From NCBI GenBank assembly GCA_030018135.1, contig JASEGJ010000010.1, forward strand, positions 1 through 37,282: DNA of 37,282 nt, read 5' to 3'. Below are positions 2,548-20,935 of this stretch, in pieces. A program made the translations under genes and the position numbers. A model generated the notes under the pieces. The model did not search any database, was not told where the DNA came from, and saw only the letters and a list, made by a program, of their open reading frames with translations. Position 1 is the first letter of the stretch, and the number at the start of each line of letters is the position of its first letter. The DNA comes from Candidatus Hodarchaeaceae archaeon. Lineage in GTDB: Archaea > Hadarchaeota > Hadarchaeia > Hadarchaeales > Hadarchaeaceae.

Positions 2548-2880
2548 CTGCCCGCCCTTTGAATAAGTGAAATTCCCCGAACTCCCGGATCCCTTCACCG
2601 CATCCATCGCCCGCTCCGCCACCCGCTGCGCCGCGGCCTCAGCCTGCTTATAGGAACGAGCCATCTTGATCCTATATCCGGGCGACCCAACGTAGTACAT
2701 CTCGACCGCAACTCCCGTGCTCTTGACTGAATCGCGGCATCGATCATCGCTTGCTTCAGCTTCTCAACCTCATCGGGCTCGGGGCAATCAAATCCAGGTC
2801 TCCAACCACCCTAAAGCTCGGGGATACCACGATCGAAGCAGAATTTTTTTGAATCCAATAGGATCCGAAATTACCTTACT
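2548..2880 (-). pseudogene. Translation initiation factor 2 alpha, C-terminal domain remnant
   Basis: CPEPDEVEKLKQAM.../VEMYYVGSPGYRIK..SYKQAE...AMDAVKGSGSSGNF resembles aIF2alpha domain III (YVGAPRYRI...DYK.AE); N-terminus missing. Confidence 0.65.
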
Positions 2881-2886
2881 GCATTT

Positions 2887-5001
2887 TTACTCAATGGCCT
2901 CCTTAACGGCGTAAATTCTCGCGTGCAATTTGCCTTCAAGTTTGTACAGTTTGGCGGCGGCCTTGAACCTGCTTCCCTTCTTGATCAGTTGCCTAGGTCC
3001 ATCGTACTCGTTCGGCATCAACACTAAGTGCCATTTGTCGTCAACAGATAAAATAGCCTTCCCAGGCAGGATCCTTTCGACTTCAAAAGTGTGGATCTCT
3101 CGGGGTCTATGCCTGGCAACTTCTACTTCCGCCGGATAAATCCTCTCGCCCACCCTCCTGACTTGATCCTCGTCGTGGAGCCTATCCAACGCTGCCCCTA
3201 CCGCACCCGGGCTGATGCCCTCGGCCTCTAGCTCTGCGCTCAGCTCCGCGACGGGAACACCTTCACGTCCAGCTCTGAGTGTCCGCATCAGGATGAGCTT
3301 GGCCACCTCTTTCACCTCCCTATTGAACCACTTCAACCGCTCCTTCTCCAAGGATTCCAGTTCCAGTTCGATTGAAACCTCGGGTGCTCGACCTTCAATT
3401 GGCGCGTACTCCTCGGCTTCAGAAATCACCTCCATCGACATGGGGCTTTCCTTCGGGGCAGGGCCAAATCGTGCGATAGGCTCGAGCTCAAAATTCAAGC
3501 TCTTCACTAAGGACTTCATCCGCTCCGCCATTTTCGTGCTCGCCCTGAGGTAGCTCACGTCAAGCGTCCCCTCGGTAGCTAGGATCACAACCCTACCGAA
3601 CCTCCTCCTTCCGGTCCTTCCCTTCCTCTGGATGTATCTGATCTCACTCGGGACTGGCTCGTAAAAGACGACCAAGTCTACGCTCGGGACATCGAGCCCT
3701 TCCTCGCCTATGCTCGTCGCCACAAGCACCTTTAACTCTCCTTTCCTGAATTTTTCGAGCAGGAAAGCTTGCCGCTCTTGGCTCATCCCGGTGTCCCCAG
3801 CCCTATCAGCCTGCCCGATGAATCTGGCGGAACTTATCCCGACCTCGGAAAGCCTCGAAACCAAGTGAGAGGATGTATCCCTATATTGGGTGAAGACGAT
3901 TATATTCGAGGACGGCTTTCCCGAAAGTTGCCCCAGCAAGATGCGCTCTAGGGCATTTACCTTCGGATGCTCTTCCAAAGAATCTAGGATTTCGTAAACC
4001 CTTCTAAAAGTCAGACCGGAGGCAATTGCTCTGTGGCTAAGCTTTTCGCTTTGCTTAACACGCTCCAGGAAACATTTGAGCGCGTATGCGCCCTGGCTTT
4101 CCAATAGCTCTAGTGCATGAAAGAGCGTAAGCGCAGTGGATTGCAGGGCGACGATGCTATAGAGCCGCCTTCGCTCTTCTTCCAGTGGTGTTTCTTCTAT
4201 TCTATATCTCAGCTCGTCTCCGAGTTTGAGCAGATCGGTTCTGAATACGTACTTCGGATCCTTTTTGATGACGCCAATCGAAGACAATTTCTGAAGTCTT
4301 TCTTCCAGCATTCCCCTCAAGATTTCCCTCGGTTTCCGGTAGGATTCCGGCAACCGCACGAGCTTCCAATCCATCGCAATTGGACTTATATAGGGCCTGA
4401 CATCTGGATCCTCTTCGGTCCTAGTCTCCACGTGTTCGATGTGAAGAGCCTTGCATAACTCCACGATCTTCTTCCGATCTGCCCTTGGGCTAGCAGTCAG
4501 ACCCAAGATTATCGGGTAAGGCGCCTCGTTCAAGTAGGCCTCCGCCACTCGGGTGTAAGCATAATTCTTCCTTGCCCTATGGCACTCGTCGAAAACGAGC
4601 AGGCTAAAGTTTCTCAATTTAAGCCCGAGCCTGCAATCGTTCTGGACGACCTGGGGAGTCGCGAAGTAAATACGGGCCGAGCCTTTCCAAGCGTGAAGCC
4701 TATAGCTAGGTGCGTATTTCCCAGTTAAAACTTGCACATCTTGGGGGCGGAGCTTGAGGAACCTCATGAAAGTATCCCTGTGCTGCAGGACGAGAGGCCT
4801 AGTTGGAGCCATGACCAAGACTTTCATGTTGCTGTAATTGTAGAGAAAGTGAGATGCGACTAAGGACGCTATGACAGTCTTTCCGAGCGCGGTAGGTAGT
4901 ACGACCAGCGTATTCCTCTTTATAGCCTCCCCAGCAACCGCAAGCTGATAGACCCTTTGCTCAAAGGCTCTTTCCCTCACCAGCGGATTTATCGGTAGCA
5001 T
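2887..5001 (-). CDS. Hef/FANCM(Mph1)-type DExH helicase without an ERCC4 nuclease domain; C-terminal wHTH- and OB-like segments
   Basis: PTALGKT, PTRPLVLQH, ATPQ, DECH, TASP, RFIGQA, ATSIGEEGLD, YEPVPSEIRYIQRKGRTGR. Confidence 0.9.
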   Translation of the reverse strand: MLPINPLVRERAFEQRVYQLAVAGEAIKRNTLVVLPTALGKTVIASLVASHFLYNYSNMKVLVMAPTRPLVLQHRDTFMRFLKLRPQDVQVLTGKYAPSYRLHAWKGSARIYFATPQVVQNDCRLGLKLRNFSLLVFDECHRARKNYAYTRVAEAYLNEAPYPIILGLTASPRADRKKIVELCKALHIEHVETRTEEDPDVRPYISPIAMDWKLVRLPESYRKPREILRGMLEERLQKLSSIGVIKKDPKYVFRTDLLKLGDELRYRIEETPLEEERRRLYSIVALQSTALTLFHALELLESQGAYALKCFLERVKQSEKLSHRAIASGLTFRRVYEILDSLEEHPKVNALERILLGQLSGKPSSNIIVFTQYRDTSSHLVSRLSEVGISSARFIGQADRAGDTGMSQERQAFLLEKFRKGELKVLVATSIGEEGLDVPSVDLVVFYEPVPSEIRYIQRKGRTGRRRFGRVVILATEGTLDVSYLRASTKMAERMKSLVKSLNFELEPIARFGPAPKESPMSMEVISEAEEYAPIEGRAPEVSIELELESLEKERLKWFNREVKEVAKLILMRTLRAGREGVPVAELSAELEAEGISPGAVGAALDRLHDEDQVRRVGERIYPAEVEVARHRPREIHTFEVERILPGKAILSVDDKWHLVLMPNEYDGPRQLIKKGSRFKAAAKLYKLEGKLHARIYAVKEAIE

Positions 5002-6733: not shown

Positions 6734-7631
6734 CTATCGGTAATAAGAATAGGTTGGGTAAATCAGATAATGGGGGTAAATAGGATAGTTTGTTGGCCGC
6801 TTGGGCCCGTAGATAATTAAGCGAAGGAACTCCTTTCCGCGCTCGCGGAAATTTCTCAAAAATATGTCCCACAATTCTCTTCTATCGCTCTTTCCCTTTG
6901 CTCCTTTGAAAATCTGATTTGACCATCGGACAACTGCCTCTGCATGGAGCTTCGCATACTCCTTATTTTCGAAAGCGAATGCCTCCAGCACCCGCCTCGG
7001 CGCGTATTTTCCTGCGATTTCATTTATGAGGGCTTGGTTCTCTCGGATGCGCTGCATCCCTTCTCGTCTGGCTCGCTCCTCAGCCTCCTCTTGCCTTTTC
7101 AAGCGCCAACTCCTATATCCTCCTAGGATCCCATTCCCCTCCCCGATAATTCTTTAAGAATTCCTCTGAGTTCTTCGAGATCCTTCTGGCTTGAGAGCGA
7201 ATCGCACTTCGAGGAAATGAAATCCAGCCCCTCGGTCAGCCTCTTAACTCGCTCCATTTGCTATCTGCCCCCGCCCCAGACACTTCATCTAAAGCCTGCT
7301 CCAGGGCCGCCTTCAGCTCTTCAGCACCCTCGTGGATTTCCTGTCTCAACTTAAATTGCTCGAATTCTTCTCGGATGCTCGGCTTCTCCTCCCCTAGCGG
7401 TGCCTCCCTTGTCCCCAGTGCGACCCTACCTGCTGAAAACGTTGGCGCGTTTCTTCTGTTATCGGAACACCAGCCGCCTCGCACGCCTCGGAGAGACCTA
7501 GGAATTGGCCATAGAGTTGCCTCCGGGGGAACCCCTCCCCCTCCCGCTCCCGTATGGAGGGGGCCTACCATTTTTCTCGTAAAAATCTCGGATTTTATGG
7601 ATTATTTTATTCCGCTGCTCTGACCAAACAT
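6734..7631 (-). pseudogene. Fragmented hypothetical coiled-coil-rich protein
   Basis: Charged helical ORF pieces at 6734-7102 and 7236-7571; GGAGG RBS before an ATG at ~7631. Confidence 0.35.
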
Positions 7632-16572: not shown

Positions 16573-16707
16573 AGCCCCGTGGGGTAGACCAGTAAAGCTG
16601 GGCCTAATGGTCAGGGTTCAAAGCCCCCATAAAAGCCTTCGGGCCTTTGGAGCCCGTGACCCCGGTTCGAAATCGGCCAGCCGACGAAGTTCCGGGCGGG
16701 GCTACCA
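16573..16707 (+). tRNA. tRNA-Gln(UUG) with three non-canonical introns: 16588-16607 (15/16), 16613-16632 (D-loop ~20a/20b), 16672-16690 (58/59); CCA encoded
   Basis: Removing the three BHB-bounded segments gives a 76-nt cloverleaf: AGCCCCG/CGGGGCT acceptor, CGGGC-CT-TTG-GA-GCCCG anticodon arm, CCCGG-TTCGAAT-CCGGG T arm. Confidence 0.92.
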
Positions 16708-16903
16708 TTTTTGTTAAGTAGTCTTGAGAAGTCGGATCGCCGAAGGACGTGGGGCAATTATCGCTTTTTAGCCGCTTTATTGCCTCCTTAAGGGCGTTTT
16801 CCGCGACCCGTGAAATGTTCAGGCCCGCATCCTTCGCTTCCTTCAAGATAGCAGGATCAAGGGTGATTGCGGTTATCTGGCGCTTTCGGTTTGGTCCCTT
16901 CAT
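16604..16903 (-). CDS. int(N): CcdA/ribbon-helix-helix-like N-terminal integrase fragment reading antisense into the tRNA
   Basis: TAITLDPAILKEAKDAGLNISRVAENALKEAI is CcdA-like; continues MVAPPG...RTGVTGSKG, in register with RTGVAGSKG of int(C). Confidence 0.8.
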   Translation of the reverse strand: MKGPNRKRQITAITLDPAILKEAKDAGLNISRVAENALKEAIKRLKSDNCPTSFGDPTSQDYLTKMVAPPGTSSAGRFRTGVTGSKGPKAFMGALNPDH

Positions 16904-17197
16904 GTATATACACTCCTATGCACTCTCAGCCTCTTCAAGCACTTCTTTCAATCTCCTAGATATAATCCCCTTGATGTTTTCCATACTCTGCTCCTCCGCG
17001 AGGCGGCAAAGTTGTTCTATTCGCTCAGGAGACAACTTGCGGCCCCGCCCTCGCCTGCTCGATGCTGCACACTATTAAAAACCACTTTGCCAACCGAGAC
17101 AGTGCATCGCCCATATTAAACCACGCGACATAAAAACTCGGCGCGATCTTTTTTTAGATTTTTAAGGAAATAAAAAAAGAGAGTTTGGGGCCCTAGG

Positions 17198-17674
17198 ATG
17201 GACTGGAGAGAATTTCTTCCTGTACATGAGTATAAAGCGTGGGTCGAAGACGCTCGAGATAAATTGGAGGAAGCGAAGAAGGATCTAGATGACTTTCCTT
17301 TTAGTGCCTTTCAACGGGCCCATGAATCTGCCGAATTTTTATTAAAAGCCGTTTTGGTCCGTGCGGGCAAATTCGGTAGAAAAAATCGAATCCACCAATT
17401 ACCACCGCTTCTGGATAAGATAGATCGCGAAAAATGCCTTCCACCCGGAGCGATTACTAAAGCACGAGAAATTGTGCCAGAACTCGAGATTATAAATGTG
17501 GGCGGCCCGCGACCAGCCCCTACGCATGTCGACTCCATTACATACACAGCCGAGGTTGAATATCCGAAGGCAGGAATGTCTTCTACCGATCGAATATCAA
17601 AGGAAATGGCTGAGGAAAAAATATGTTTGTCACAACAACTGCTTGAATTATTACTTCCTTATTTGGACTGTTAA
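17198..17674 (+). CDS. HEPN-domain protein (cargo)
   Basis: W..ARDKLEEAK...SAFQRAHESAEFLLKAVL...IHQLPPLL HEPN pattern; lower GC than the flanks. Confidence 0.75.
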   Translation: MDWREFLPVHEYKAWVEDARDKLEEAKKDLDDFPFSAFQRAHESAEFLLKAVLVRAGKFGRKNRIHQLPPLLDKIDREKCLPPGAITKAREIVPELEIINVGGPRPAPTHVDSITYTAEVEYPKAGMSSTDRISKEMAEEKICLSQQLLELLLPYLDC

Positions 17675-17684
17675 ATTGGCGCTG

Positions 17685-17969
17685 TTAACTTTTCTTTTTC
17701 CTCAACAATCTTCTTATTTGCTCTTCCTGTCTATTGTACCATTTATCAAAGAGCAGATACCCAAAGGGTAAATGAATGCCAAAGATTCCGAGTCCTCAGA
17801 AAATTAGGGGCCAGTGAAACCATATCTTTTCCGGCACAACTACGAGGTTGTAAACTGGAAAAATAACTGCGTTGAAAACCAAGTATATCACGAGATGGCA
17901 AAGGAAACCTTTTTTTGCTTCTCTCTTTTCCACAACTCTTCTCGCTTCTCTGTAATCCTTCACACTCAT
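17685..17969 (-). pseudogene. 2TM-domain small membrane protein with in-frame TGA at 17796-17798
   Basis: MSVKDYREARRVVEKRSKKGFLCHLVIYLVFN...WFHWPLIF*GLGIFGIHL...; the stop falls at the expected W of WPxxxWG. Confidence 0.7.
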
Positions 17970-18029
17970 TTTTTCACATCCATCGGTGTGATATTGCTTC
18001 CTTAAAAGGTTGATGGAGGTATTAAGTTA

Positions 18030-18213
18030 ACACCTATGTGAATCGCGAGGTTTTTTATTCATTTCGGTTTTCTCACTATCACCTCATCGGTTTTGGGCAT
18101 GATTGCATACACCTATCCGCGGTCTTTCGCCGCAATATAGTTTTTCGCTCGGGGCCCTCAATCAAACCCACGCGGTCAAAGCCGCAATTGAATTCCCGAG
18201 GTGCCCCTGCCCC
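18030..18213 (-). mobile_element. Transposase-less IS110 derivative (MITE-like) carrying a bridge-RNA copy
   Basis: Reverse complement aligns with 667-854; stems conserved, changes mostly in loops; terminus ATAGGTGT (18030-18037) matches its internal guide (18109-18116). Confidence 0.8.
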
Positions 18214-18255
18214 TTTTGTTTCTCCCTTTGATGGTTGTGGGAGCATGATATTCAC

Positions 18256-18285
18256 CCGCCTCTCATCGAATAGTTTGAGAGGCGG
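18256..18285. terminator. Perfect 10-bp hairpin downstream of int(C)
   Basis: CCGCCTCTCA-TCGAATAGTT-TGAGAGGCGG. Confidence 0.45.
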
Positions 18286-18331
18286 ATCCCTTAAAGCCGA
18301 GCGATTCATCATCCTATCAGCACCGTTAAAT

Positions 18332-19159
18332 TTACGAGAGAACTTTTAACCCCGCGCCATCGTATATCCTCTTTAACCGTTCGGGAGAGAAGTCCGTGTA
18401 ATGCCTCGCCAGCACGCTCCTCGGAACCCGCCCACAGAAGGCATCGACGTATCTGTCTGCAACGCCCAACTCGCCCATCTCGGAGCAGAACCAGTCGCGC
18501 AAAATCTGGGGCGTGATCTTAACGCCCGATGCCTCGCTCGCCCGCTTGAACCACCTATCAATTCGACTACTCCGCCACGGAAAGAGCCTTTGGTCGGCGC
18601 TCACGTCCCGCCCGTTGAGGTATTCTCTCAGCGCTTGCTCCGCTTCTCGGTTGAAAAATGACGCCCATCTTTTCTTTGTTATTGTGCTTGTTACGTTTGG
18701 CAGCACCATTCTCTTGTCAAGGTCGATGTCGCCTATCTTGAGCGATGCGACCTCATCTCGCCTAAGCCCCGATGTGGCGAGCATCAGGAACACCGCACGT
18801 TCAAATGGCCTTTTGAGCGCTTCGTAAAATCGCTTCAACTCTTCCTTGGTCGGCACCCTTTTCGGCTTGAACTCTTGGCGCGGTAATTTGAACGTCGCCA
18901 CTATTTCGCCTCTGCCCAAGAAGTCGCGGAAAAATCTTCTAAATGCTTTAAGAATGTTGGCGCGAGTCGAGGCGCTTGAATCCTTAAAGCCCGCGAGATA
19001 ATCTCTAATAACATCGGTCGAAACTTCAGCGCCGTTTAACCATCTCAAGAATCGTTTAATTTCACGACAATGATCTTGGGCGGTGGCCTCGGACAGCGAT
19101 AGGTCGATCGTGCAAAATTTCTTGAACTTCTCCAAAACATCAGGATCGAACGTTATGCC
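18332..19159 (-). CDS. int(C): SSV-type tyrosine recombinase, catalytic fragment
   Basis: TSGLRRDE, ITPQILRDWF, FCGRVPRSVLARHYTD; the reading frame runs out of attR. Confidence 0.92.
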   Translation of the reverse strand, partial: GITFDPDVLEKFKKFCTIDLSLSEATAQDHCREIKRFLRWLNGAEVSTDVIRDYLAGFKDSSASTRANILKAFRRFFRDFLGRGEIVATFKLPRQEFKPKRVPTKEELKRFYEALKRPFERAVFLMLATSGLRRDEVASLKIGDIDLDKRMVLPNVTSTITKKRWASFFNREAEQALREYLNGRDVSADQRLFPWRSSRIDRWFKRASEASGVKITPQILRDWFCSEMGELGVADRYVDAFCGRVPRSVLARHYTDFSPERLKRIYDGAGLKVLS

Positions 19160-19200
19160 TTTGGAGCCCGCGACGCCGGTTCGAATCCGGCCGGGGCTAC
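19157..19200 (+). repeat. attR: intron-less 3' half of tRNA-Gln(UUG)
   Basis: GCCTTTGGAGCCCGCGACGCCGGTTCGAATCCGGCCGGGGCTAC. Confidence 0.92.
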
Positions 19201-19267
19201 TAAATTTTAGGAAAAGTCGCATTTTTTTCGCCGCACGTAAGCTTAATATCGGCGATGCGCAAGTAAA

Positions 19268-20804: not shown

Positions 20805-20935
20805 AGCCCCGTGGGGTAGACCAGTAAAGCTGGGCCCAATGGTCAATCCTGGCGGACGCTTCACAAGGCCGCAATCTGGATCCGTCGACCCCGGTTCGAA
20901 ATCGCCCCGCGACGAAGTTCCGGGCGGGGCTACCA
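20805..20935 (+). tRNA. tRNA-Gln(CUG) with three non-canonical introns: 20820-20839 (15/16), 20858-20874 (32/33), 20901-20918 (58/59); CCA encoded
   Basis: Spliced product is a 76-nt cloverleaf with anticodon arm GCGGA-CT-CTG-GA-TCCGT; each intron has a BHB-like junction. Confidence 0.92.

Follow-up and report, generated by a model that had tools for sequence, protein, structure and literature searches.

A split integrase at the borders of a small element

The window analysed here is a stretch of 37,282 nt (positions 1 to 37,282 of the forward strand of contig JASEGJ010000010.1, GenBank assembly GCA_030018135.1) from the archaeon Candidatus Hodarchaeaceae, in which a tRNA-Gln(UUG) gene houses an insertion. 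The insertion is very probably a cryptic element of 2.5 kb with an integrase of the SSV style, whose attachment site (attP) carried a tRNA intron and which, on integrating, brought this intron into the host gene as its third. The anatomy of the locus, the integration geometry, homology, the empty site found in relatives and the bulge-helix-bulge (BHB) motif of the intron were each observed directly, and are described in turn below.

The element is bracketed by a 14-bp exact direct repeat (16643-16656, identical to 19157-19170) with a spacing of 2514 bp; by our own estimate, about 0.05 exact repeats of this length would be expected by chance within 5 kb. The repeat is part of a tRNA 3' region, and this core covers tRNA positions 30-43, i.e., the anticodon loop and the 3' strand of the anticodon stem. 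Past the core, the likeness of the two copies extends over 36 nt at 89%, followed by a gap of 19 nt in the right-hand copy and then by 22 nt at 82%. The GC content is 41-48% between the repeats, compared with 55-65% in the flanks. The left-hand core (attL, 16643-16656) is followed by the integrated body (16657-19156, minus strand; 2,500 bp, or 2,514 bp counting one core), which is absent from the syntenic locus of two relatives. The right-hand site (attR, 19157-19200, plus strand) comprises the core and a displaced, intron-less tRNA-Gln(UUG) 3' half with the T stem GCCGG/CCGGC.

Two partial integrase genes lie at opposite borders of the element on the same strand, as in the type I (SSV-type, or 'suicidal') integrases. 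The open reading frame (ORF) int(N) (16604-16903, minus strand) has 99 codons, 87 of which precede the core, and encodes a ribbon-helix-helix (RHH), CcdA-like N-domain (Pfam PF07362; 30.9 bits against a cut-off of 22.4) and a linker that, in the integrated state, enters the host tRNA 5' half. The second ORF, int(C) (18332-19222, minus strand), has 296 codons, of which 274 follow the core; it starts at an ATG in host DNA, crosses the displaced tRNA half and encodes a core-binding (SAM-like) and a catalytic domain. It matched PF16795 (Phage_integr_3; 36.9 bits, cut-off 27), PF00589 with the higher score of 48.8 bits, PF13495 and PHROG integrase families. When the two cores were recombined in silico with a script, an open ORF of 361 codons was obtained, in the order RHH N-domain, tRNA-antisense linker, core-binding domain and catalytic domain. 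A crossover in the acceptor stem, where there is a 9-bp identity, was also considered and was rejected, as a stop follows that join. The repeat, its spacing and the codon counts had all been given in an initial annotation made from the sequence alone; they were confirmed, as was its prediction that a rebuilt attP would join int(N) and int(C) in frame.

The joined protein has unsplit relatives. In total, 1061 homologues of int(C) were found, and some of the longer ones that were fetched carry an RHH domain in the same ORF (P0048, P0111 and P0113). The 361-codon product aligns end to end with P0048, which is itself unsplit and 361 aa long, and the two RHH domains are 49% identical over 41 aa. 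A scan of 121 related loci with an RHH profile gave ORFs in 20, in every case on the strand of the integrase, and unsplit RHH-integrase ORFs of 344-365 aa were present in four loci (L071, L125, L106 and L072). An exact att repeat of 33-72 bp was identified in 12 of the 13 split loci, two of which (L093 and L095) represent one element on two contigs; no att repeat was seen in the remaining locus, L138. In-silico joining gave an ORF that was open for 355-439 aa in 11 of the 12 split loci with a repeat, and in the other (L128) a stop lies upstream of a junction that is otherwise in frame. The unsplit homologues and the 11 open joins thus uphold the initial reading of an SSV-style split integrase in a tRNA gene with the CcdA-like ORF as its N-terminal part, and homologues routinely out of frame across attP, for which that annotation had advised looking, were not seen.

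Homologues of int(N) were sampled separately (22 fetched of 141), and these were mostly ORFs of 48-150 aa. By our own reading, 17 of the 22 end in peptides that are the antisense of a tRNA T arm and acceptor stem, and all three registers of the tRNA antisense are represented among the relatives. A search for near relatives of int(N) returned one match, at 59% identity, and the closest contig matches are titled Hadesarchaea/Hadarchaeota, 'Methanobacteriota' and Bathyarchaeia. Viral contigs yielded neither an exact match to the 26-nt pattern of the intron described below nor a relative of int(N).

The RHH N-domain is probably a dimerisation or DNA-binding module. A homodimer model of the domain scored 0.50 (best of three controls, 0.00), its runs agreed on at least 89% of contacts, and the pLDDT of the partner was at least 69. 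Of 30 proteins solved as pairs of one chain, 20 reached the mark that this model passed, against 1 of 23 solved as single chains. RHH dimers have been solved many times over, so this pass may show likeness alone. The model nevertheless fits the part played by the N-terminal portion of SSV integrases, which acts in multimerisation according to the available part of a 2021 review (PMC8371274).

Other integrase-bearing loci showed further arrangements. The closest int(N) relative among the loci (L031, G043:C23:1-6545; 68% identical) stands at the end of an element exceeding 6 kb, the int(C) of which is cut by the contig start and the cargo of which includes a 233-aa HNH-like ORF and a 237-aa ORF. 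On the metagenome contig L106, the linker DNA of the unsplit 353-aa RHH-integrase ORF (2637-3696) is repeated 4.8 kb away at 7553-7607, within a tRNA-Glu(CUC) gene, so that an intact 'suicidal' integrase adjoins its own target; this is possibly a tandem or a freshly restored arrangement. The genome of the window (G000) also contains two integrase C-terminal fragments near contig ends (G000:C34:2-151 and G000:C29:540-620), matching the end of int(C) at 74% and 96% identity, which points to further copies or remnants of related elements elsewhere in this genome.

The hybrid tRNA gene and the source of its third intron

The tRNA gene at attL (16573-16707, plus strand) is a hybrid: positions 1-43 of the pre-tRNA-Gln(UUG) are host-derived and the remainder, through the encoded CCA, is element-derived. 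A BHB scan gave three good intron candidates. Two lie in the D loop on the host side, each 20 nt long with a relaxed BHB and an inner helix of 5 bp: intron 1 (16588-16607, plus strand; central helix GGGT/GCCT), the position of which is common to relatives and to a nearby tRNA-Gln(CUG) paralog, and intron 2 (16613-16632, plus strand; central helix ATGG/CCAT), which is also found in the UUG genes of G005, G014 and G052. The third, element-borne intron (16672-16690, plus strand) is 19 nt long, lies in the T loop at what we take to be position 59/60, and is the best BHB candidate in the gene. Its motif is a strict hBHBh', with an outer helix of 5 bp formed by the T stem, a central 4-bp helix TTCG/CGAA, 3-nt bulges AAA and GTT, and an inner helix TCGG/CCGA; the cut in a BHB falls after the second bulge base. 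On the minus strand the same 19 nt make six codons and one base of the int(N) linker. The annotated 19-nt intron therefore looks genuine, and its dual placement was as originally described.

Once the three introns were removed in silico, ARAGORN called a canonical tRNA-Gln(ttg) with the T loop TTCGAAT (base 1 was supplied by a padding A, identical to the genomic A16573). The attB rebuilt in silico from the same 5' part and 19171-19200 also folds as a canonical tRNA-Gln(UUG). The unspliced gene was called neither by ARAGORN, with or without its intron option and at lowered thresholds, nor by Rfam at E<=1; a low-threshold ARAGORN call of 'tRNA-Arg' on the unspliced gene was discarded as spurious. 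Inserts of 15-20 nt at 59/60 occur in nine distinct related tRNA-Gln T arms, with the central helix kept in 9/9 and inner helices that differ, yet pair in most of the nine through compensatory changes. The genome encodes one splicing-endonuclease homologue (PF01974, on G000:C33), and blastn found no other tRNA-Gln(UUG) gene in this metagenome-assembled genome (MAG), which is 93% complete.

The question of which 3' half is foreign was decided by the relatives. In two members of the same family (G013 and G003) the gene order is AOR, tRNA-Gln(UUG), p74, p228, tRNA-Gln(CUG), with 88% amino-acid identity of AOR, and the element is absent. Their tRNA-Gln(UUG) gene has no T-loop intron, and its 3' half is identical at 44/44 positions to the displaced fragment at 19157-19200. 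The displaced fragment is therefore the native one, and the intron-bearing half is element-borne, which is also what site-specific integration demands by its geometry. The opposite assignment had been suggested by the host CUG paralog (20805-20935, plus strand; identified by blastn), which has its own 18-nt T-loop intron at 59/60 and 3'-half exons matching those at 16657-16707, with 94% identity to the element-borne half in a 50-column blastn alignment with one gap; it was rejected in view of the intron-less empty sites. The CUG paralog also has a D-loop intron near-identical to that of the UUG gene and an insert of ~17 nt beside the anticodon loop, and was not called by ARAGORN. The initial annotation had noted neither the foreign origin of the intron-bearing half nor the similar intron of the CUG paralog.

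A donor-type allele was found in a third genome, G002. There, the 3' half of a gene read as tRNA-Gln(UUG) contains a single 19-nt T-arm intron, is identical to the element arm at 49/50 positions, and abuts a p228 homologue at the contig start. Of the 65 genomes in the class, just G000 and G002 contain a 26-nt intron pattern searched for with up to three mismatches. Readable tRNA-Gln(UUG) genes without a T-arm intron are present in 11 genomes (G003, G005, G011, G012, G013, G020, G021, G028, G052, G059 and G061), and two T-arm introns occur in four (G006, G014, G044 and G053) and on the metagenome contig L041. Within one family the number of introns in tRNA-Gln(UUG) ranges from 0 (G021 and G061) to 4; the four-intron genes, with two D-loop introns and two T-arm introns (20 and 21 nt), are those of L005/L154 (G014:C4), L022, L024, L029 and L041.

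A second int(N) that crosses intron-bearing tRNA sequence was identified. The tail of P0124 corresponds to the antisense of the two-intron T arm of G014 at 36 of 37 aligned residues, with one V/I difference, and past this alignment the G014 frame stops while P0124 continues. Elements of the RHH-integrase family can therefore carry host-type introns inside int(N), and P0124 suggests that they can carry even two T-arm introns there.

These observations fit the following history, in which recombination activity, splicing and the direction of transfer are all read from sequence. The circular form would have held one 361-codon integrase gene, the last ~22 linker codons of which were the antisense of the tRNA-Gln(UUG) 3' part; the template of this attP arm appears to have been a tRNA-Gln allele with an intron, such as that of G002. 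Strand exchange within the 14-bp identity at tRNA positions 30-43 would have divided the integrase gene between int(N) and int(C) and rebuilt the tRNA from the host 5' part and the element 3' part. In this way the gene, the native 3' half of which was intron-less, would have acquired a third intron, and the sole detected tRNA-Gln(UUG) would now depend on splicing of the imported intron.

Alternative explanations and the frame of the integrase

Several observations weigh against this history. The attL-attR identity is just 14 bp, compared with 33-72 bp in the relatives, and the integration would have been one into a non-cognate allele, which is unusual; short or mismatched att sites have been reported in other elements, as noted in the available text of two papers (PMC6563490; PMC7253208). 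The donor-type contig of G002 begins inside the tRNA with the anticodon off the contig, so its assignment to UUG rests on synteny and on the junction of the stem and variable loop; neither the tRNA 5' half nor the element was recovered on any contig of G002. Neither an unsplit copy of this particular integrase nor another int(N) with the same linker was recovered, in searches that were weak. The catalytic signature is R...QxxR...Y, which differs from the SSV1-type consensus R...KxxR...Y (given in the available part of PMC8371274), and the nearest solved structure by sequence is XerA rather than the SSV1 integrase. In addition, both the core-binding and the catalytic domain reside in int(C), for which host DNA supplies an in-frame ATG, so int(C) might work without the RHH domain. 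On alignment to XerA (4a8e), the query has Q where XerA has H (PQILRDW / PHQLRHS) and R, R and Y are present; the fetched int(C) homologues also carry Q at the catalytic K/H position, and the SSV1 catalytic domain matches int(C) weakly (E 0.0096). By organisation the integrase is of type I ('suicidal'), and it would work in the manner of an SSV-type enzyme, in a distinct sequence family.

The intron might have reached the element after integration: attP would originally have been intron-less, and the intron would have been copied into the attL tRNA by gene conversion, with either the CUG paralog at 4 kb distance or some other intron-bearing tRNA-Gln allele as its source, leaving the in-frame join of int(N) and int(C) as a 1-in-3 coincidence in a lucky pair of pseudogenes. 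The paralog does share the 3'-half exons and the intron position, and the highly variable intron content of tRNA-Gln in the family makes exchange between copies plausible. However, the attL arm is nearer to the G002 allele than to the CUG paralog of the same genome, which has another inner helix and another intron length, the joined ORF is intact over 361 codons, and P0124 is a second int(N) that crosses intron-bearing tRNA-Gln sequence; conversion is therefore considered unlikely. It is less likely again that the CcdA-like ORF is an independent antitoxin or regulator beside an unsplit integrase of the pNOB8 type, or resembling XerA, that starts at ATG 19222 or internally. Such independence would agree with the two recombinase domains of int(C), with its best solved relative, and with most RHH homologues in databases being small stand-alone ORFs; a search for longer proteins containing int(N) also found none at E<=0.01 among 567 candidates, although this is weak evidence. 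Against it, the RHH ORF has no stop before the core and continues across the tRNA antisense (like 17 of 22 homologues fetched), unsplit RHH-integrase ORFs exist, related att-repeat loci join open in 11 of 12 cases, and ATG 19222 lies in host DNA, outside the element. An assembly artefact, in which the contig merged strains with different tRNA-Gln alleles into a hybrid tRNA, is scarcely credible. In its favour, the assembly is a MAG of 45 contigs, breaks and false joins are frequent at tRNA and att repeats, and the G002 contig starts inside the same tRNA. A chimera would not, however, place the two integrase parts at opposite element ends in one orientation, with a direct repeat and an ORF that is open once joined, which is exactly the arrangement expected of site-specific integration.

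The influence of the intron on the integrase frame was also examined. Deleting 16672-16690 from the joined ORF caused a frameshift with a stop just past the junction, and in this the arithmetic of the initial annotation was correct. Among related elements L034 is the closest, with 80% identity in int(C); it targets tRNA-Arg(GCG) and reads the same antisense register at the CCA end; the interval between a shared Met and a shared Ile codon is 48 nt in L034 and 63 nt in the window (44 nt of exon antisense and 19 nt of intron). Since the 63-nt cassette is the sum of 44 and 19, as against 48 nt in L034, the 19 nt are needed for the frame.

From this dependence it had been proposed that the intron is a frame-setting device, and that the tRNA, by acquiring or losing it, would switch the production of full-length integrase. 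That proposal was not supported: the crossover core is upstream of the intron, so the intron state of the host never enters the ORF. With the sole exchangeable identity (tRNA positions 30-43) preceding the intron, the intron-bearing arm of the element is retained at every integration; in the present case a host allele free of the T-loop intron was used, and the ORF can nevertheless be restored. Nor is a special role of the 19 nt supported, as their loss would be an ordinary frameshift mutation and the relatives use all three antisense registers. We know of no reversible mechanism that adds an intron to element DNA or removes it. Alternate frames and border indels at att sites have already been described in the available text of PMC7253208. 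The frameshift on deletion and the arithmetic from L034 notwithstanding, a switch is therefore very improbable, and no regulatory significance, for which there is no support, is attached to it; the frame dependence is a by-product of having attP inside an ORF, not a regulatory device.

Cargo, known systems and wider meaning

The cargo of the element is small. It comprises a HEPN-domain protein of 158 aa (17198-17674, plus strand; PF05168, 32 bits), a small membrane protein of 57 aa with two transmembrane segments (2TM; 17796-17969, minus strand; PF13239, 26.9 bits) and, directly upstream of int(N), a small ORF without a family match (16916-17035, minus strand; 39 codons from a TTG, 52 from stop to stop). 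The N-terminal stretch of this last ORF, open within 16916-17140 on the minus strand, looks like the start of a helix-turn-helix protein, and the ORF is possibly degraded. No replication gene was recognisable in the element among Pfam and PHROG matches, the cargo being HEPN, 2TM and small ORFs. A repeat of ~125 nt, 86% identical between its two copies, is present downstream of int(C) within the element (18091-18215, plus strand) and beside a fragmented putative transposase-like ORF at the contig start (667-788, minus strand). Its predicted fold is strong, at ~-41 kcal/mol, for which two copies allow no covariation, and the element copy has no Rfam match.

The integrase resembles the 'suicidal' integrases of SSV1, pTN3 and pT26-2 (Sulfolobales and Thermococcales) in having attP inside the ORF, a tRNA 3' part as the target, int(N) and int(C) at the borders and a match to PF16795, which is a mark of suicidal integrase families in the available part of PMC8371274. 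The att-encoded protein segment in such integrases is described as a tolerant linker (in the available text of PMC8371274 and PMC7253208). In contrast to those systems, the present integrase has an RHH (CcdA-like) N-module, a QxxR motif and a tRNA intron in attP, and its hosts, by record titles, are uncultured Hadesarchaea, Bathyarchaeia and relatives. No description of an RHH-fused integrase family was found in the literature searched; the terms 'Ribbon-helix-helix', 'Bathyarchaeota' and 'Hadesarchaea' are absent from PMC7253208 and PMC8371274, and among the papers listed on integrases or tRNA introns of Hadesarchaea/Hadarchaeota none was relevant. In size the element is comparable with the 2.6-kb thaumarchaeal cryptic integrated elements NitUzo-E2 and NitEve-E3 (Krupovic et al. 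2019, PMC6563490), which are likewise tiny, consist of an integrase and a few genes, and have short att sites and no recognisable replication protein. Those elements have an SSV1-like split integrase of another family and a host of another phylum, and the available part of that paper mentions neither an RHH fusion nor an att intron.

Introns are unmentioned in Badel et al. 2020 (PMC7253208), and in the available part of the 2021 review (PMC8371274) the only passage on integrase-linked introns is a citation of Sugahara et al. 2012 (PMC3293823). The latter, in its available text, proposed import of an attP-borne intron for tRNA-Thr(GGU) of Caldiarchaeum subterraneum. That case is like the present one in that an intron-bearing attP recombined with an intron-free attB, the tRNA gained an intron and a tRNA fragment was left at the other border. 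As far as the same text goes, however, the recombinase there does not overlap the tRNA (a pNOB8-type enzyme was inferred), the intron is at 24/25 in the 5' part, and the evidence is population heterogeneity. In the present case a dual-coding intron is situated within the integrase ORF, at 59/60, and both recipient-type (G013/G003) and donor-type (G002) alleles are available. Randau and Soll suggested that tRNA introns shield genes from integrating elements (as cited in the available part of PMC3293823), whereas at this locus the intron is on the element side and integration was not prevented.

Import of introns by attP is thus not new as a concept, having been proposed in PMC3293823 and repeated in PMC8371274, in so far as their available text shows. 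What is new is an SSV-style setting in which the intron is also coding, the identifiable donor- and recipient-type alleles, and the RHH-fused integrase family. How archaeal tRNAs gain non-canonical introns is an old open question, and in the literature searched import through attP rested on the one case of 2012. The locus provides a clean second case, with a recipient-type allele in the empty-site relatives, a donor-type allele in G002 and the vector itself; with alleles and vector in hand, the import model is made testable. It further indicates that a tRNA intron can sit within a protein-coding frame on the opposite strand. RHH-fused 'suicidal' integrases also emerge as a large and apparently undescribed family, beyond the cultured hyperthermophiles from which enzymes of this kind were characterised.

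There is about an even chance that the process is general, i.e., that in this archaeal class split-integrase elements copy host tRNA-Gln introns into attP, and so into the ORF, and deliver them to alleles of other lineages that lack them. If so, T-arm introns would offer no protection against such elements, and selection would act on the same 19 nt twice, through the RNA structure of one strand and the open frame of its complement. Integrating elements would then be working vectors that spread BHB introns between tRNA genes and between species.

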